This document shows positions 6,991 through 45,372 of a stretch of DNA of 64,000 nt, piece after piece. The notes under the pieces are model-generated. The model searched no databases. It saw only the letters and a list, made by a program, of their open reading frames with translations, and was not told where the DNA came from. Source of the stretch: Glaucostegus cemiculus (taxonomy: Eukaryota); assembly GCA_976551045.1 (NCBI GenBank), contig CDPCPM010000056.1, forward strand, positions 10,168,001 to 10,232,000, written 5' to 3'. A program made the translations under genes and the position numbers. Positions within the stretch are counted from its first letter, which is position 1, and each line of letters opens with the position of its first letter.

Positions 6991-7087
6991 GGTTCAACCT
7001 GAGATCACAAGATCACAAGACAAGGGAGCAGAAGTAGGCCATTCAGCCCTTCGAGTCTGCTCCATGAGAAAAGAAAAGATAACATAT

Positions 7088-10000
7088 CTATCCCCAATTT
7101 CCAGCCTTATCCCCATATCCCTTGATACCTTGATTAATTAGGTACCTATCCAACTCCCCTTTAAATGCCCCCACTGACTGAGCCTCTACAGCTGTATGTG
7201 GCAGAGAATTCCACAATTCCACCACCCTCTGACTAAAGTAATTTCTCCTCATCTCTGTTTTAAACTGGTTCCCTCTGATTCTAAGTCTGTGCCCTCTAGT
7301 CTTGGACTCACCCACCAAGGGAAACAGCCTTTCCACATCCACTCTATCCATTCCCTTCAACATTCTAAACACTTCTATGAGGTCCCCCCTCATTCTTCTG
7401 TACTCCAACGAGTACAGTCCAAGAGCCGATAAACGCTCATCATAGGTAAGCCCTTTCATACCAGGAATCATCCTTGTAAACCTCCTCTGGACCCTCTCCA
7501 ACATCAGCACATCCCTTCTAAGGTGTGGGGCCCAAAACTGCACACAGTATTCCAAATGAGGACGTACCAGTGCTCCATAGAGCCTCATCATCACTTCTCT
7601 ACTTCTATACACTATACATCGCGAAATGAACGCCAACATAGCATTTGCTTTCTTTATCACCGATTCGACCTGGTGATTGACTTTTAGGGTGTCCTGCACG
7701 AGTACCCCCAAGTCCCTTTGTACTTCCATACTTCCAATTTTCTCCCCACCTAGATAATAATCTGCCCGTTCATCTCTTTTGCCAAAGTGTACTACAGCAC
7801 ATTTGTCAACATTGAATTTCATCTGCCATTTCTTTGCCCATTCACTTAACCTATCCAAGTCTCTCTGCAGCCTTCCTGCCTCTTCTATACTCCCTGCTCC
7901 ACCGCCAATCTTGGTGTCATCCGCAAACTTAGCTACAAAACCATTTACTTCATCATCCAAATCATTAATATATAAAGTGAAAAGTAGCGGGCCCAACACC
8001 GACCCTTGCGGGACACCACTAGTAACTGGTCGCCATTCAGAACAGGATCCCTTTTATTCCTACCCGTTGCTTTCTGCCTACCAGCCAATGCTCGACCCAT
8101 TTTAATATCTTTCCTGTAATTCCATGCGTACTCATCTTATTAATCAAACTCTGATGCGGCACCTTGTCGAAGGCCTTTTGAAAGTCTAAATACACAATGT
8201 CCACTGCCTCTCCCTTATCCACCCTACCTGTGATTTCCTCAAAAAACTCCAATAGGTTGGTCAGGCAAGATCTTCCCTTTATGAAACCATGCTGGCTTGG
8301 ACCTATCCTGTCTTGAAACACCAGGTATTCCGTAACCTCATCCTTGAGGATCGATTCCAGTATCTTTCCCACTACTGACGTCAAACTAATTGGTCTGTAA
8401 TTACCTTTATGCTGCCTCCCACCTTTCTTATACAGTGGAACTACGTTCGCTACTCTCCAGTCCTCCGGAACCATGCCGGAGTCCATTGTCTCTTGGAAAA
8501 TAATCACTAATGCCTCTACAATCTCTAAAGCCACCTCCTTCAGAAGTCGAGGGTGCACCTCATCCGGTCCGGGTGACTTATCTGTCTTTAATCCTCTTAG
8601 CTTCCTTAGCACCTTCTCCCTAGTAATCTCAACTGTACTCAGTTCAATCCCCTGGAACCCCTGTCTATCTGGTATATTGCTGGTATCTTCCACAGTGAAG
8701 ACCGATGCAAAATACTTATTTAGTTCATCTGCCATCTCTGTATCTTCTATTATAATCTCTCCCACACCATTTTCGATTGGTCCTATATCAACCCTTGTCT
8801 CTCTTTTACACCTCATATATTTTAAAAAACTTTTAGTATCTGTTTGAATGTTATCTGCCAATTTCCTTTCGTAATTCATCTTTCCTAATGACCTTCTTAG
8901 CTTCTTTCTGCAGGTTTTTAAATGTTTCCCAATCCTCAGTTTCCCCACTTATTTTTGCTACCTTGTAGGCCCTCCCTTTTGCTCTTATCTTAGCCTTAAC
9001 CTCTCTCGTTACCCACATATGTGCCTTTTTTCCATTCAGAACTTTCTTTTTTCTTGGAACATACCTATCCTGCAACTTCCTTATTTCTTGTAAAAACTTT
9101 ATCCATTTCTGCTCCACCGTCCCACCTGCTAGCTTACTCTTCCAATTGATTTGAGGCGGTTCCTCTCTCATGCTGCTGTAGTTTCCCTTGTTCCATTGCC
9201 ATATATGTGCACCAGTTATGAGCTTCTCCTTTTCAAATTTGACTCCAAACTCAATCATATTGTGATCACTGGTTCCTAATGGTTCCATTACTTTTAGCTC
9301 CCTAATCAGCTCTGGTTCATTGCACAGTACCCAATCCAAAATGGCTGATCCCCTGGTGGGTTCATCTACAAGTTGCTCCAAAAAGCCATCCTGTAGACAT
9401 TCTACAAACTCAGTTTCCTGCGATCCACCTCCTCGCTGATTTTCCCAATCTACCTTCAGGTTGAAGTCCCCCATAATTATCTTCACATTGTCCTTTTGAC
9501 ACGCCTTTTCTATTTCTAACTGTATCCTATAGTCCTCCTCCTGGCTGCTGTTAGGGGGTCTATATATAACTGCAATTAGCGTCCTTTTACCCTTGCTATT
9601 TCTTGGCTCCACCCATAAGGATTCCACTTCTTCCACCCCTATGTCCTTCCTTTCTATCGATGTTATATTATTACTGACCATCAGGGCTACACCACCCCCT
9701 CTGCCTACCCTCCTATCCTTCCTATACACCGTATACCCTTGGATGTTCAGTTCCCAATCACATCCATCAGTAAGCCATGATTCGGTGATTGCCACGATAT
9801 CATATTTTTTAGCTTGTAGCTGTGCCACTAGGTAATCGACCTTATTCCTAATGCTACGTGCATTAAAATACAGTACTTTTAGAACAGCATCAACTGCAGA
9901 ACTTCTATTGATCTCTAAATTATCCTTACCTTCCACCCGCCTGTCCTTCTTACCATCTTCACTACACGTCGACTTGTTCCCGCATACCACCTCCTTTAAT

Positions 10001-10179
10001 CTAAGCTGGTTTCCTTCGTCTTGCCTGATTAGTTTATCCACCTTTTTACTATTTTGGCCTGTACTCTGCTTCTCCTTCCTCAGAGCCACTCTGTCTGTTA
10101 GATCTGCCTTTTCTGTAACCTCTACATCCTCTGACCTGCCCTCCTGGTTCCCATCCCCCTCGCCAACTAGTTTAAACTC
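7088..10179 (-). pseudogene. CR1 ORF2 (APE endonuclease and RT), two frameshifts
   Basis: YFNARS, ITESW, GDFN, SDHNMI, YRPISLTS, YLDFQKAFD, KFADD; versus the sister copy, a 5-nt deletion near 8880 and a 1-nt insertion near 8050. Confidence 0.92.
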
Positions 10180-11129
10180 TCATGAACCATCCAAGCATAC
10201 CGTGCTGCAAGGATATCTGCCCCCCTCTGGTTGGGGTGTAACACGTCCTCTCTGTACAGGCCCCACCTTCCCCAGAAGAGGTCCCAGTTATCCAAAAATC
10301 TAAAACCTCCTACCCTGCAGCACTTTCTCAGCCACGTATTTAATTGCCACCTCGCCCTGTTCCTACCTTTCCTATCACGTGGCACCGGTAGTAATCCTGA
10401 GATTACTACCCTTGAGGTCCTGGTCTTCAGCTTTCTGCCTAGCTCCATAAACTCCCTTTTCAGGACCTCATCCTTCTTTCTACCTATGTCATTGGTACCA
10501 ACATGAACCATGACTTCTGGCTGCTCTCCCTCCCACTCGAGAATCCTGTGAACCCGATCAGTAATATCCCGGACCCTGGCACCTGGGAGGCAACATACCA
10601 TCCGGGATTCATGTTCACTTCCACAGAATCTCCTATCTGTTTCCCTGACTATCGAGTCCCCTATCACCACTGCATTTCTCTTCCCCTTCTTCCCCATCTG
10701 AGCAGTAGTACTGGTCCTAGTGCCAGTGACCTGGGTACTAGTGCTTGGTCCCTGCAGGCTATCCCCCTCCACAGTTTCCAAAGTTGAAAACCTGTTATTG
10801 AGGGGAATAGCCTCCAGGGTTCTCTGCACTGTCTGGCTATTTGTTTTCCCCTTCCTTTTCCCTCCCCTGACAGTCACCCAGCTATCTACTACCTGGACCC
10901 CTGAAGTATCTGCTCTAAGTGGGGTGACTGTCTCCTGATGTGCCGCATCTATATAACTCTCTCCCTCCCTGATGCTCTGCAGTGTTTGAAGCCGTGACTC
11001 CAGCTCATCAATTTTGAGCCGAAGTTCCTCCAGCCTCACACACTTACTGCAGAAGTGGTCAACGTGGACCTCAACAGGGTCCACATCCTCCCACATCAAG
11101 CAGCTGCAGCACTGCACCATGCCCTCCAT
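10167..11129 (-). CDS. CR1 ORF1p: CxxC..CxxC zinc finger, leucine zipper, SGNH/GDSL esterase; intact 320 aa
   Basis: CCSC...CSKC, LEELRLKIDELESRLQTL heptads, VIGDSIVR, HVGTND, DVLHPN. Confidence 0.92.
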   Translation of the reverse strand: MEGMVQCCSCLMWEDVDPVEVHVDHFCSKCVRLEELRLKIDELESRLQTLQSIREGESYIDAAHQETVTPLRADTSGVQVVDSWVTVRGGKRKGKTNSQTVQRTLEAIPLNNRFSTLETVEGDSLQGPSTSTQVTGTRTSTTAQMGKKGKRNAVVIGDSIVRETDRRFCGSEHESRMVCCLPGARVRDITDRVHRILEWEGEQPEVMVHVGTNDIGRKKDEVLKREFMELGRKLKTRTSRVVISGLLPVPRDRKGRNRARWQLNTWLRKCCRVGGFRFLDNWDLFWGRWGLYREDVLHPNQRGADILAARYAWMVHESLN

Positions 11130-12228
11130 CTTAACTAGTTCCCCTTAGACCTGGTCTGTCCAACTATGTAACTTCAACAGGTAAGCTTTACTTACCAGTA
11201 ACCCCCCTGCCTCGCCCCTTCAAGCCGAAGCCCCTTGAGCCAAAGCCCGAACACTCTGCTCCCTCCTCACTCCGCTGCCCGCTCTAGAAGCTGGTTGCCT
11301 TTTAAGCTGCCCGTGTCGCGCCTGCGCAGTGCAGCCCTCACTCAACCCCTTAAAGCTTATATAACCCTACTAAAGATAACTTCTAAATACTATCTAACAC
11401 TAGTACCTTACACCATAGTGTAAGCTTTCAGTTACCTCTTCCTTTAATTCTCCACCGCAATCCTGTTTTTTTTTATCTCTGTCTTTGACCTCTTAGACTT
11501 CTAAGAAAGCTCAATGTAAGATCCAGAAACAACATCTCATTTTCAGACATGTTACACCCTTCAGGACTCAATGCTGAATTCAACCATTTCAGATAACTAG
11601 CCCTTCCGATTTGTATCAGAATTTGTGAGTTCCGGTAAAAGGTCGGCAACCTATAATGTTAAATCCATTTTTCTTCTTTCATGATTTTGCCTGATGATAT
11701 TATTTCCAGTATTTTTGTTCCCATTAATGGATGAGTTTCATATGACACTTATATAGACCAGCTGTCACTCTAAGATCTGGACTAGAACAGTTCAAAACAA
11801 ATCTGCATTTGTGCTTTACATGTTTCTTGTGACCCTGCAGAAAGCATTTATTGCTTATTACATTTTTCCATATTAGAAGAGTTCAAAGGAAGATGCTAAT
11901 ACGATTATAGTCTATAATTCTCTCTCTCTTTCTCTCTCTCCCTCTCTCTTTTCCCCACCCTACATCAGTTTTCACTCTTGTCTGTTCTTTCCCTTTTTGC
12001 TCTCTTCTTCAGATTCTTTCCCATTTCATACTTTGCCCTGCATCTTAATTGTGTATATTAAACATTGAAAATGTTTGCTCCATGACTAATAAAAATATAA
12101 TGTTCCAGGGTTTGGTTATATTGCATTGTCATAAAATACATATAATTCTTGTTTTGAATAGATCTGATGGATTAACATTATTTTTGAATGTCAATTTAAT
12201 TCCTAACAGACTTTATTCATACTTGCAG

Positions 12229-12993: not shown

Positions 12994-15900
12994 ATCACAA
13001 GATCACAAGACAAGGGAGCAGAAGTAGGCCATTCAGCCCTTCGAGTCTGCTCCATGAGAAGAAGAGAAAAGATAACATATCTATCCCCAATTTCCAGCCT
13101 TATCCCCATATCCCTTGATACCTTGATTAATTAGGTACCTATCCAACTCCCCTTTAAATGCCCCCACTGACTGAGCCTCTACAGCTGTATGTGGCAGAGA
13201 ATTCCACAATTCCACCACCCTCTGACTAAAGTAATTTCTCCTCATCTCTGTTTTAAACTGGTTCCCCCTGATTCTAAGTCTGTGCCCTCTAGTCTTGGAC
13301 TCACCCACCAAGGGAAACAGCCTATCCACATCTACTTTATCCATTCCTTTCAACATTCTAAACACTTCTATGAGGTCCCCCCTCGTTGTTCTTACTCCAA
13401 TGAGTACAGTCCAAGAGCTGATAAATGCTCATCATATGTAAGCCCTTTCATACCAGGAATCATCCTTGTAAACCTCCTCTGAACCCTTTCCAACATCAGC
13501 ACATCCCTTCTAAGGTGTGGGGCCCAAAACTGCACACAGTATTCCAAATGAGGACGTACCAGTGCTCCATAGAGCCTCATCATCACTTCCCTACTTCTAT
13601 ACACTATACCTCGCGAAATGAATGCCAACATAGCATTTGCTTTCTTTATCGCCGATCCGACCTGGTGGTTGACCTTTAGGGTGTCCTGCACGAGTACCCC
13701 CAAGTCCCTTTGTACATCTGTACTTCCAATTTTCTCCCCATCTAGATAATAATCTGCCCGTTCATTTCTTTTGCCAAAGTGTACTACAGCACATTTGTCA
13801 ACATTGAATTTCATCTGCCATTTCTTTGCCCATTCACCTAAACTATCCAAGTCTCTCTGCAACCTTCCTGCCTCTTCTATACTCCCTGCTCCACCGCCAA
13901 TCTTGGTGTCATCCACAAACTTAGCTACAAAACCATTTACTCCATCATCCAAATCATTAATATATAAAGTGAAAAGTAGCGGGCCCAACACCGACCCTTG
14001 CGGGACACCACTAATAACCGGTTGCCATCCAGAACAGGATCCTTTTATTCCTACCCGTTGCTTTCTGCCTACCAGCCAATGCTCGACCCATTTTAATATC
14101 CTTCCTGTAATTCCATGCGTACTCATCTTATTAATCAACCTCTGATGCGGCACCTTGTCGGAGGCCTTTTGAAAGTCTAAATACACAACGTCCACTGCCT
14201 CTCCCTTATCCACCCTACCTGAGATTTCCTCAAAAAACTCCAATAGGTTGGTCAGGCAAGATCTTCCCTTTACGAAACCATGCTGGCTTGGACCTATCCT
14301 GTCTTGAATCACCAGGTATTCCGTAACCTCATCCTTGAGGATCGATTCCAGTATCTTTCCCACTACTGACGTCAAACTAATTGGTCTGTAATTACCTTTA
14401 TGCTGCCTCCCACCTTTCTTATACAGTGGAACTACGTTCGCTACTCTCCAGTCCTCCGGAACCATGCCGGAGTCCATTGACTCCTGGAAAATAATCACTA
14501 ATGCCTCTACAATCTCTAAAGCCACCTCCTTCAGAAATCGAGGGTGCACCTCATCCGGTCCGGGTGACTTATCTGTCTTTAATCCACTTAGCTTCCTTAG
14601 CACCTTCTCCCTAGTAATCTCAACTGTACTCAGTTCAATCCCCTGGAACCCCTGTCTATCTGGTATATTGCTGGTATCTTCCACAGTGAAGACCGATGCA
14701 AAATACTTATTTAGTTCCTCTGCCATCTCTGTATCTTCTATTATAATCTCTCCCACACCATTTTCAATTGGTCCTATATCAACCCGTGTCTCTCTTTTAC
14801 ACCTCATATATTTAAAAAAACTTTTAGTATCTGTTTGAATGTTATCTGCCAATTTCCTTTCGTAATTCATCTTTTCTTTCCTAATGACCTTCTTAGCTTC
14901 TTTCTGCAGGTTTTTAAATGTTTCCCAATCCTCAGTTTCCCCACTTATTTTTGCTACCTTGTAGGCCCTCCCTTTTGCTCTTATCTTAGCCTTAACCTCT
15001 CTCGTTACCCACATATGTGCCTTTTTTCCATTCAGAACTTTCTTTTTTCTTGGAACATACCTATCCTGCAACTTCCTTATTTCTTGTAAAAACTTTATCC
15101 ATTTCTGCTCCACCATCTCACCTGCTAGCTTACTCTTCTAATCGATTTGAGACAGTTCCTCTCTCATGCTGCTGTAGTTTCCCTTGTTCCATTGCAATAT
15201 ATGTGCACCAGTTATGAGCCTCTCCTTTTCAAATTTGACTCCAAACTCAATCATATTGTGATCACTGGTTCCTAATGGTTCCATTACTTTTAGCTCCCTA
15301 ATCAGCTCTGGTTCATTGCACAGTACCCAATCCAAAATGGCTGATCCCCTGGTGGGTTCATCTACAAGTTGCTCCAAAAAGCCATCTTGTAGACATTCTA
15401 CAAACTCTAGTTTCCTGCGATCCACCTCCTCGCTGATTTTCCCAATCTACCTTCAGGTTGAAGTCCCCCATAATTATCTTCACATTGTCCTTTTGACATG
15501 CCTTTTCTATTTCTAACTGTATCTTATAGTTCTCCTCCCAGCTGCTGTTAGGGGGTCTATATATAACTGCAATTAGTGTCCTTTTACCCTTGCTATTTCT
15601 TTGCTCCACCCATAAGGATTCCACTTCTTCCACCCCTATGTCCTTCCTTTCTATCAATGTTATATTATTACTGACCATCAGGGCTACACCACCCCCTCTG
15701 CCTACCCTCCTATCCTTCCTATACACCGTATACCCTTGGATGTTCAGTTCCCAATCACATCCGTCAGTAAGCCATGATTCGGTGATTGCCACGATATCAT
15801 ATTTTTTAGCTTGTAGCCGTGCCACTAGGTCATCGACCTTATTCCTAATGCTACGTGCATTAAAATACAGAACATTTGGAACAGCATCAACTACAGATAT

Positions 15901-16314
15901 TGATGAACTTCTATTGATCTCTAAATTATCCTTACCTTCCACCCGCCTGTCCTTCTTACCATCTTCACTACACGTCGACTTGTTCCCGCATACCTCCTCC
16001 TTTAATCTAAGCTGGTTTCCTTCGTCTTGCCTGATTAGTTTATCCACCTTTTTACTACTTTGGCCTGTACTCTGCTTCTCCTTCCTCAGAGCCACTCTAT
16101 CTGTTAGATCTGCCTTTTCTGTAACCCCTACATCCTCTGACCTACCCTCCTGGTTCCCATCCCCCTCGCCAACTAGTTTAAACTCTCATGAACCAACCAA
16201 GCAGACCGTGCTGCAAGGATATCTGCTCCCCTCTGGTTGGGGCGTAACCTGTCCTCTCTGTACAGGCCCCACCTTCCCCAGAAGAGGTCCCAGTTATCCA
16301 AAAATCTAAAACCT
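12994..16314 (-). mobile_element. 5'-truncated CR1 LINE, same young family as 7003-11430 (ORF1 3' end plus ORF2)
   Basis: Near-identical to about 7004-10309; lesions near 13392 (-1 nt), 15138 (TGG>TAG) and 15408 (+1 nt); similarity ends at aaaatctaaaacct. Confidence 0.95.
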
Positions 16315-42439: not shown

Positions 42440-45372
42440 TTGATTCTCTTTAGATTCATGGGGCATTGGAACCAGTTCTGGGGGAGGTGGGCCCAGTGCA
42501 AACTGGACAGTCTACACCTGAACAGGGCTAGGATCAATGTCATAGGGGGATTGTTTGCTTCTGGGGAGGGTTTAAACTAATGTGGCAGATATGAGAGCAA
42601 AAGGTGGAGAAAAGTAAGAGTGGAGTACAGAAAAGTCCAATGGAAAGGACACAAAGGTTACGAGATTCTAAAAATCAATGAGTGTAAGGGCACTTTATCT
42701 GAATGCCTGTAGTATTCAAAATAAGGTCAGTGAACTAGTGGCTCAAATCAGTATGAAGGGGTATGCTTTAGTGGCCATTACAGAAACTTGGTTGCAGGGT
42801 GGAGATGAGTGGGATTTAAATTTCCAAGGATATCAGGTAATACGGAAGGTTTGGCAGGGAGGTGAGGGAGGTGGGGTAGCACTCTTAATTAAGAAAGAGA
42901 TCATGGCAATGGTGAGAGATGATATAAGATCTAGAAGGCAAAATGTTGAGTCCACCTGGGTATATAGAACATAGAACATTATAGGCCATTCGTCCCACAA
43001 TGTTGTGCTGACAGTTTATCCTGCTCTAACATCTATCCAACCCTTCCCTCCCACATAGCCCTCCATTTCTCTATCATCCATGTGTGTATCTAAGAGTCTC
43101 TTAAATGTCCCTAATATATCTGCCCCCACAACTTCTGCAGGCAATGCATGCCACGCATCGACCACTCTCTGTGTAAAAAAAATTATCCCTGACATCCCCC
43201 TTGTACCTTCCTCCAGTCACCTTAAAACTATGCCCCCTCGTGTTAGTCATTTTCGCCCTGGGAAAAAGTCTCTGACTGCCCACTCAATCTATGCCTCTTA
43301 TTATCTTGTACACCTCTATCAATTCACCTTTCATCCTCCTTTCCAAAGAGAAAAGCCTTAGCTCACTCAGCCTATCCTCATAAGACATGCTCATCAATCC
43401 AGGCAGCATCCTGGTAAATCTCCTCTGCACCCTCTCTAAAGCTTCCACATCCTTCCTATAATGAAGCGACAAGAACTGAACACAATACTCCAAGTGTGGT
43501 CTAACCAGAGTTCTATAGAGCTGCAACATTACCTAGTGGTTTGTGAACTCAGTACCCCGACTAATGAAGGCCAACACACCATATGCCTTCTTAACAACCC
43601 TATTAACCTGCACGGCAACCTGGAGGAACCTATGGATGTGGACCCCAACATCCCTCTGTTCCTCCACACTGCTAAGAGTCCTACCATTAACCTTGTATTA
43701 GGGTAGAGATTAGGAATAATGAAGGGAAAAAAATCACTGGTGAGAGTTGTGAATTGTCTATAGGCCACTAAATAATAACATTACAGTGGCACAGGCAATA
43801 AACCAAGAAATATTTGATGCATGTAAGAATGGAACAGCAGTTGTCATGGGTGACTTCAGCATAGATTGGGTGAATCAAGTTAGTTGAGGTAGTCTTGAGG
43901 AGGAATTCATAGAATGCATCCGTGATAGCTTTCTTGAGCAGCATGTTAGTGAACCTACAAGGGAAAATGCTAGCTTAGATCTGGTCCTGTGCAACGAGAC
44001 AGGTAAAATTAATGATCTTGTAGTTAGGGATCCTCTTGGAAAGAGTGATCATAGTATGACTGAATTTCTCATACAAATGGAGGGTGCAATCATTCTATCT
44101 AAAACCAGTGTATTATGCCTGAAATACGGGAGACAACGGGATGAGAGAGAAGTTAGCTAGCATAGACTGGAAACAGGCTATATAGTGGGACAGTTGAGAA
44201 ACAGTGGAAGACTTTCACAGAGATTTTTCGCAGTGCTCAACAAAAGTATATTCCAGTTAAAAGCAAGGACAGTAAGGGTGGGGAGAGCCAGCCTTGGATA
44301 ACCAAGGAAATAAAAGAAGGCATCAAGCTAAAAGCTCATGCATACAAAGCCGCCAAGAGTAGTGGGAAACTGGAAGACTGGGAAACTTCAACAAGCAACA
44401 AAGAACCACTAAGCAAACAATAAGGAAAGGGAAGATAGATTATGAAAGTAAACTAGCACAAAATATAAAAACAGATAGTAAAGGTTTCTATAATTACATA
44501 TGTAAAGTGGAAAAGGGTAGTTAAAGTGAATGTAGGTCCCTTGGAAGCTGAGAAGGGGGAATTAATATTGAGTAATGTGGAAATGGCCAAGGCCTTGAAC
44601 GATTATTTTGTGTCAGTCTTCATAGTGGAGGATATGTGTAATGTGCCAAAGGGAGATGTTATATATGCAATGGGAGGTGAAGTCCTCGATACAATCACTT
44701 TCACTAAAGAAGTAGTGATGAGCAAGCTAGTGGGCCCAAGGTAAACAAGCCCCCTGGCCCTGATGGGATGCATCCCAGTGTACTGAAAGAAATGGCAGAG
44801 GTTGTAGTAGAGGCATCTGTGATAATTTTCCAAAATTCTCTGGACTTCTGGCAAGTCCCACCAGATTGGAAGACAGCATGTGTCATGCCACTGCTTAAAA
44901 AAGGATGTAGGCAATAGGCAAGTAACTATAGGCCAGTTAGCTTAACATCTGTAGTCAGGAAAATGCTTGAAGCTGTCATTAAGGAAGAAGTAGCGAGACA
45001 TCTGGATAGAAGTGGTTCCATCAGGGAGACACAGCATGGATTCAGGAAGGACAGGTCCTGTTTGCCAAACTTACTGGAGTTCTTTGAGGATATAATGAGT
45101 GCAGTGGATAGAGGGGAATTGGTGAATGTTGTATACTTGGATTTCCAGAAGGTATTCTATAAGGTTCCACATAAATGATTTATCCATACAATAAGGATGC
45201 ATGGATTTGGAAGTATTGTATTAGCATGGATGGAGGATTGGTTAACCAATAGAAGGTTGGGAGTTGGGATAAATGGGTGTGTCTCCGGTTGGCAATCAGT
45301 GGTGAGCGGGGTGCCACAGGAGTCGGTGTTAGGCCCACAGCTGTTCACAAAATATATTAACGATTTGGAATA
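42440..45372 (+). mobile_element. CR1 LINE (ORF1 3' end, ORF2 endonuclease to mid-RT), 3'-truncated, with nested insertion
   Basis: GEGLN* ORF1 end; LYLNACSIQNK, ITETW, YLDFQK, SGVPQESVLGP; stops at YINDLE. Confidence 0.9.
42963..43700 (-). mobile_element. CR1/HER1 3' fragment nested in the + strand CR1, flanked by a GGGTA duplication
   Basis: LYRTLVRPHLEYCVQF, tail atagaacatagaac; GGGTA at 42958-42962 and 43701-43705. Confidence 0.9.

Follow-up and report, generated by a model that had tools for sequence, protein, structure and literature searches.

On comparative grounds, the junction between the two open reading frames of CR1 LINEs is a real and deeply conserved signal of the recoding type. 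In the vertebrate esterase-type CR1 elements this junction is likely a site of programmed -1 ribosomal frameshifting, which would give rise to an ORF1-ORF2 fusion protein. The signal is centered on a heptamer, U_UUA_AAC, found in the zero-frame X_XXY_YYZ phase at the very end of ORF1. The expression of ORF2 in bicistronic LINEs is a question settled mainly for L1 and SART1, which use reinitiation and produce a free ORF2 protein. The window—the whole 64,000-nucleotide stretch of Glaucostegus cemiculus DNA that was analyzed—contains the following features:

~7004..11414, minus strand: full-length copy of an esterase-type CR1 LINE, dead because its ORF2 is split over three frames
10167..11129, minus strand: ORF1, 320 aa, ending in ESLN-stop
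within 10167..11129, minus strand: ORF1 domains, comprising a Cys-rich N-terminus, a predicted coiled-coil-like stretch and an SGNH esterase (PF13472)
10170..10176, minus strand: slippery heptamer U_UUA_AAC in the ORF1 phase, invariant in 9/9 lineage majorities
10167..10169, minus strand: ORF1 stop codon TAG, adjoining the heptamer
10155..10159, minus strand: GGGGG run after a 10-nt spacer, a candidate stimulator
10180..10182, minus strand: TGA shutting the -1 frame upstream and bounding the entry window
9877..10169, minus strand: -1-frame linker from heptamer to endonuclease, free of stops and of AUG
8851..10179, minus strand: first segment of ORF2, comprising the linker and the APE endonuclease (from ~9876), with its first AUG at 9681-9679
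7088..8948, minus strand: ORF2 reverse transcriptase, in two further frames (8948-8037 and 8053-7088)
7004..7020, minus strand: 3' tail of two 8-nt units (TCTTGTGA), common to this copy and the sister copy
12994..16314, minus strand: sister copy, 5'-truncated and 96.8% identical, with its heptamer at 16182-16176
42571..42580, plus strand: TTTAAAC-TAA junction of a decayed copy from a diverged CR1 lineage (family 2), with the ORF1 end GEGLN

The element shows the domain set of an esterase-type CR1, namely an SGNH esterase in ORF1 and an APE endonuclease and reverse transcriptase (RT) in ORF2. CR1 elements end in short tandem repeats instead of poly(A) and leave 5'-truncated copies; ends of this kind are seen here, with two 8-nt units closing both window copies and 5' ends that vary between copies. 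The best named match to the window ORF1 is a sawfish protein (73%), followed by those of other rays and sharks. In a quick tree of the ORF1 esterases the window protein groups with turtle, lizard and snake proteins, apart from the fish-L2 type. At first look, the 2.85-Gb genome holds 2550 candidate CR1 copies.

On the minus strand, ORF1 of the window copy closes with ...CAT GAG AGT TTA AAC TAG (10182-10167), and the -1 frame is then open over 442 codons, reaching the endonuclease (PF03372). The preliminary description of this DNA had read a candidate -1 frameshift from the heptamer, the stop and the upstream TGA, and the positions of all three were borne out base for base. It had also taken 10089 to be a GTG in the -1 frame, which it is, and had placed the first AUG (9681) behind the conserved NARS motif of the endonuclease, which holds as well, the AUG being codon 165 and NARS codon 104. 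The same arrangement was claimed for the sister copy; the heptamer is indeed present there, but it adds no independent weight because that copy is 96.8% identical and 5'-truncated. Across the 64-kb window, TTTAAACTAR occurs four times against 0.66 expected (at least four in 0/100 shuffles), and three of the four sites are CR1 junctions, including the diverged one at +42571, which comes in addition to the copies named earlier. The family-2 fragment around the latter (~42440-42960) is decayed, and other sequence interrupts its downstream part.

For comparison we assembled nine lineages, eight from the Glaucostegus cemiculus genome and one, L031, from a sturgeon-like metagenome contig whose ORF1 matches a sturgeon protein at 96% identity along 55% of its length. 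Four diverged protein queries ended about ten residues short of the ORF1 end, a further DNA query ended upstream of the junction, and one DNA query spanning the junction gave 29 copies, a set biased towards the motif. From the matches of the protein queries, 20 stretches were chosen for long open ORF1 frames. Junctions were anchored with an esterase profile lacking the last residues, and 14 weak metagenome or prokaryote matches were removed, as were all identical duplicates and one of the window copy. The resulting 160 junctions clustered into seven families plus L031, with family 6 divided in two (6a and 6b), and the addition of 29 lineage-5 copies brought the total to 189. As the nine lineages share ancestry, their counts are not independent events, and the controls given below were taken from the same alignment. 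A TTTAAGC variant that held the majority among six lineage-5 copies was dropped once the 29 further copies were included, TTTAAAC then being the majority form (20/35 exact). A contrast family of the fish-L2 type was sought in the Glaucostegus cemiculus genome and not found, the matches being lineage 6b copies. At one locus, L045, a lineage-7 element sits just within the linker of a lineage-1 element, and the heptamer is kept at both junctions (~1840 and ~2320).

Over the 249 nt upstream of the junction, the nine lineage majorities are 49-92% identical, with 29% of columns invariant and no invariant run longer than 5 nt. At the junction itself, TTTAAACTA is invariant in the column majorities of all nine. 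The codon that supplies the first U of the heptamer encodes S, C, G, A or H, yet its last base is T throughout, while the third base is kept in only 5/62 amino-acid-variable codons upstream. The junction leucine is TTA in 9/9 lineages, a codon that accounts for just 12/82 Leu codons overall, and each of four other invariant leucines uses three to five different codons. AAC likewise makes up 16/42 Asn codons, yet it is fixed here; among 18 degenerate invariant residues only three keep their codon. As the stop that follows, six lineages use TAG and three use TAA. Counted by copy, the exact TTTAAAC is present at 146 of the 189 junctions, with TAA or TAG next in 132 of these 146 and at least four G at +11 to +15 in 139; copies lacking the exact heptamer fall mostly in old, decayed families. 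We conclude from these codon patterns that the constraint on the junction is one acting on nucleotides. A comparison of junctions of this sort had been proposed in the preliminary description, and it finds the heptamer, the adjoining stop and the -1 phase kept across lineages far beyond amino-acid constraint, so that its frameshift interpretation is supported, with the fusion protein being the predicted outcome.

The sequence between the heptamer and the endonuclease is 93, 129, 132, 150, 150, 168, 198, 300 or 312 nt long in the nine lineages (the window's subfamily also has a 309-nt variant). All nine lengths are multiples of three. Read in the -1 frame, these linkers are free of stops, while the other two frames contain 33 and 54, with ~35 expected by shuffling. 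Past the first dozen codons they are mostly dissimilar in sequence, and still the frame is preserved all the way to the heptamer. On its upstream side, a stop shuts the -1 frame one to eight codons before the heptamer in 9/9 representative copies, and the overlap contains no AUG. The open linker shows, as far as reading frames can, that translation of ORF2 starts at or near the junction.

That much is likewise predicted by termination-reinitiation, in which ribosomes stop at the end of ORF1 and restart without an AUG, or at a nearby one, to make a separate ORF2 protein. It is the established route for bicistronic LINEs according to the covered parts of PMC2881922 and PMC10275272, in which L1 and SART1, like CR1, are bicistronic and depend on ORF1 translation for ORF2. 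A lineage-6b AUG lies in frame 5 nt past the stop, and four other lineages also carry linker AUGs. The linker is free of AUG in four of the nine lineages (6a, 7, 5 and L031); the other five carry one or two each, at codons 5; 18; 28; 39 and 52; and 15 and 51. As these positions are not shared, there is no common AUG start, nor does any near-cognate codon common to the lineages follow the stop. Lineages 6a, 7, 5 and 2 do have an AUG inside the G run, but it belongs to the ORF1 frame and not to that of ORF2. The UAAUG stop-start coupling of the SART1 type is absent in eight of the nine lineages, and in 6b the AUG does not overlap the stop. Frameshifting and AUG-independent reinitiation are told apart by the heptamer and not by the open linker alone: unlike a -1 shift, the reinitiation of L1 and SART1 yields a separate ORF2 protein and needs no slippery site, so it requires neither the X_XXY_YYZ phase, nor TTA, nor the upstream U, and it leaves the alternation of ORF1 ends described below unexplained. 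We therefore regard reinitiation as unlikely. The young, abundant lineage 6b (e.g., L214, L223-L237), which combines its AUG 5 nt past the stop with a preserved heptamer and G run, is a natural test case for reinitiation versus frameshifting.

A second alternative, which we consider very improbable, is that a donor in the 5' UTR is spliced to an AG before the G run, with the motif serving as branch point and acceptor, and ORF2 is translated from a subgenomic mRNA. A CTG/GTAAGT site does occur 30-75 nt before the ORF1 AUG in lineages 6a, 6b, 7 and 4 (seen in the window copy and in L214, L216 and L217), and eight of nine lineages have an AG before the G run or overlapping it. Against this, the polypyrimidine tract is missing, as is a U12-type CCTTAAC core, and lineage 6b has no AG. 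Moreover, the 5' UTR of the window copy upstream of the donor (11414-11196) contains no AUG, and as the ORF2 frame lacks an AUG ahead of the endonuclease in four lineages, a spliced mRNA could not encode an intact ORF2 there.

The donor-like site of the window copy (11198-11190, minus strand) lies inside a short inverted repeat, GGTAAG...CTTACC. The 5' UTR CTG/GTAAGT could be a U1-binding or splice signal, and several database proteins are host-gene models fused to ORF1. A U12-donor-like ATATCCTT ~40 nt upstream of the window heptamer was rejected, being too near for an intron and simply encoding D/N-I-L.

The imprint of the heptamer can be followed in ORF1 proteins as an xLN end. Such ends are found in named proteins from Pristis, Mobula, Leucoraja, Callorhinchus, Latimeria, Acipenser, Synaphobranchus, Paramormyrops, Chrysemys, Macrochelys, Zootoca, Varanus, Erythrolamprus, Hirundo and Tauraco, thus covering rays, sharks, chimaera, coelacanth, sturgeon, eel, mormyrid, turtles, lizards, snake and birds. 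In these named vertebrate proteins the end usually comes 26 residues after the DxxH motif; overall, LN is found 25-39 residues past it, varying by clade. In a set of 100 LN-ending proteins, 12 different amino acids occur directly before LN. Just one of the proteins has there a residue that no U-ending codon can encode; the next two positions hold 41 and 37 such residues, although this K/E/Q/M/W control is also low (1-15%) at several other positions. Two database proteins from copies that read past the junction (P0037 and P0172) show the -1 frame as FKL, the prediction from TTT AAA CTA.

Could the heptamer be a by-product of protein constraint and codon bias, with ORF1p requiring a C-terminal Leu-Asn? 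All 33 ORF1 proteins in an alignment chosen for complete ends share the terminal N, and T-ending codons are common in CR1 elements. However, TTA and AAC are both fixed at the junction despite their modest shares of the Leu and Asn codons, and neither the fixed G run nor the expression of an AUG-less ORF2 is explained. The ORF1p esterase of ZfL2-1 (PDB 4c1b), an SGNH homolog of the window ORF1 (E 1.5e-39; PMC3905857, as far as its covered part describes it), ends without LN, as does the ZfL2-1 clade in general, from which it follows that the esterase fold needs no LN. We find this explanation hardly probable.

A broader survey of protein ends used a 50%-identity library, in which 92 of the best 150 representatives had a scorable end. 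Tripeptides compatible with a slippery heptamer close 54 of these 92 proteins, as against 3.5% of internal positions; they comprise 43 of 44 LN ends, nine QGN and two SKN. Seven further representatives carry xKN at this position but terminate later, and 38 of the 92 have no compatible end tripeptide, among them the fish-L2-type clade. That clade, the solved ZfL2-1 esterase included, is without the xLN signature, which is therefore not universal among esterase LINEs. In a quick tree, an unnamed group of 55 proteins outside the vertebrate clade contains 17 LN, nine QGN and two terminal SKN ends and seven cases of xKN with a later stop. Read from protein alone, the LN, QGN and KN ends would match U_UUA_AAC, G_GGA_AAC and A_AAA_AAC, a correspondence that we find suggestive. 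These are three of the four shiftiest heptamers named for mammalian ribosomes in the covered part of PMC5009743. DNA of distant relatives was sought in viral contigs, with none or one weak match, in genome contigs, with weak matches only, and in a metagenome scan, with one usable locus out of 11. Tentatively, and at somewhat less than an even chance, the dominant LINE of birds, reptiles and sharks together with its wider relatives might make RT as a Gag-Pol-like fusion through a structure-free signal composed of the heptamer, the stop and a G run 10 nt on that would bind a protein or stall the entry channel, the heptamer having switched among these three forms.

A small clade nested among the QGN proteins (P0182, P0203 and P0229) ends in FFH or FFR, which may reflect a U-rich slip site; a compatible preceding residue is seen in P0203 only.

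A bare slippery heptamer normally shifts weakly, and we searched the junction for a stimulator. The window RNA downstream of the heptamer folds no better than shuffled sequence (z = +1.38), and z exceeded -1.5 in 26 of 27 fold tests over the nine lineages, the remaining one reaching -2.07. No stable first stem was found downstream of the heptamer with folding programs that do not model pseudoknots, and Rfam gave no match at the junction, its sole sub-threshold match lying far from it. A three-tier G-quadruplex at the G run was rejected, since four GGG runs are absent from most lineages. Nor did the G run have a shared long-range partner in a search without shuffle control that omitted lineage 1, whose copy had no exact motif: the best partners differ in place by lineage. 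A weak recurring pairing match of the G run in the RT region was seen in lineages 6b, 7 and 5. As the test for a stimulatory structure failed, the CR1 junction does not fall in the canonical structured -1 class.

What is conserved instead is linear. The preliminary description had noted a G-rich tract about 5 nt downstream; a tract is present, but its conserved part is not the GGCGA at that distance but GGGGG (10159-10155), which lies exactly 10 nt past the heptamer in 9/9 lineages; in eight of them, two further bases and then GG or GGG come next. The run does not vary even at third codon positions, which marks it as a nucleotide signal. According to the covered part of PMC5009743, most 3' stimulators lie 6-9 nt from the shift site and some 12-15 nt, and most are stem-loops or pseudoknots; an umbravirus frameshift requiring a nearby stop is also cited there. 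The least certain part of our reading is that the stimulator would not be a local RNA fold and would most likely be the GGGGG run, which would either be bound by a protein or signal a pause at the entry channel, helped by slow termination. With canonical structure absent, and with the heptamer no more strictly fixed than the stop and the G run, one might take the motif for an RNA signal of another kind, serving RNP assembly or packaging or a +2 or stop-associated shift or hop, and not for a site of tandem -1 slippage, but the exact X_XXY_YYZ phase and the alternating tripeptides that fit canonical heptamers make this scarcely credible.

Under the favored frameshift reading, U_UUA_AAC would make a minority of the ribosomes shift back by one base, with tRNA-Leu and tRNA-Asn re-pairing from UUA/AAC to UUU/AAA. 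Decoding would resume at CUA to give the junction ...ESLN-LVGEG..., and the predicted transframe peptide spans ...ESLN-LVGEGDGNQEGR. Slippage would be raised by a bound or pausing G run along with slow termination at the adjoining stop. The product would be an ORF1-linker-endonuclease-RT fusion of ~1,320 aa, a size predicted from one natural lineage-6b copy with an intact ORF1 and 1001 open codons from the heptamer. Most ribosomes would stop and release free ORF1p, presumably maintaining a high ratio of ORF1p to RT as in Gag/Gag-Pol.

The closest parallels among LINEs are the Dictyostelium elements TRE5-A and TRE3-A, whose ORF2 is said to require a -1 frameshift in a figure legend in the covered part of PMC5911963. 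Like CR1, they are two-ORF APE-type non-LTR retrotransposons with a -1 shift stated for ORF2; unlike CR1, they have an unrelated ORF1 and host, and the likeness is one known from a review statement. In the coronavirus 1a/1b junction (IBV U_UUA_AAC) both the heptamer and its phase are the same as in CR1, and coronaviruses and retroviral gag-pol share with it the logic of fusing a structural protein to a polymerase (PMC5009743, part covered). In contrast to these viruses, CR1 has no detected stem-loop or pseudoknot; its heptamer is followed at once by a stop and, at +11, by a linear G run. A nearer resemblance in this respect is the PRRSV nsp2 frameshift, in which CCCANCUCC, bound by nsp1-beta and PCBP, lies 11 nt 3' of the shift site (same part of PMC5009743). 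Both have, in place of an RNA fold, a linear homopolymer-rich motif that is short and lies at a constant distance (11 nt there, a 10-nt spacer in CR1); however, the CR1 motif is G-rich and not C-rich, belongs to a host LINE and not a virus, and has no known trans-acting protein, so that this is a resemblance only.

As to priority, PMC5009743 names HeT-A and TART among non-LTR elements and does not mention CR1 in the part covered; the covered part of PMC5006619 mentions frameshifting for DIRS-1 only; that of PMC3905857 contains no occurrence of the word "frameshift"; and that of PMC11835228 gives the two ORFs of CR1 but no mechanism for ORF2. No report of CR1 frameshifting was found in the literature searched, whose coverage did not extend to the original descriptions of CR1. 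Early CR1 papers reportedly described the ORFs as closely spaced or overlapping and may have suggested frameshifting, which leaves priority uncertain.

If CR1 frameshifts, its active enzyme would be a fusion of the esterase, endonuclease and RT, any annotation in which ORF2 begins with the first AUG would be wrong, and mobilizing CR1 in cells would need the native junction. Vertebrate genomes would then hold very many copies of a possibly new, structure-free frameshift stimulator; CR1 makes up 11.8% of the chicken genome, as given in the covered part of PMC11835228.

Two further observations concern the wider family. At L036 (1320-1335), GGT TGA CTA connects a distant esterase ORF1 to a second ORF that lies in the same frame and begins like an endonuclease. 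UGA-CUA is a context typical of stop readthrough, and in related LINEs ORF2 may be reached by readthrough instead. Finally, P0009, a CR1 ORF1 ending in GLN that NCBI lists, from a 4-kb contig, as an SGNH hydrolase of Pseudomonas aeruginosa, is probably vertebrate contamination.
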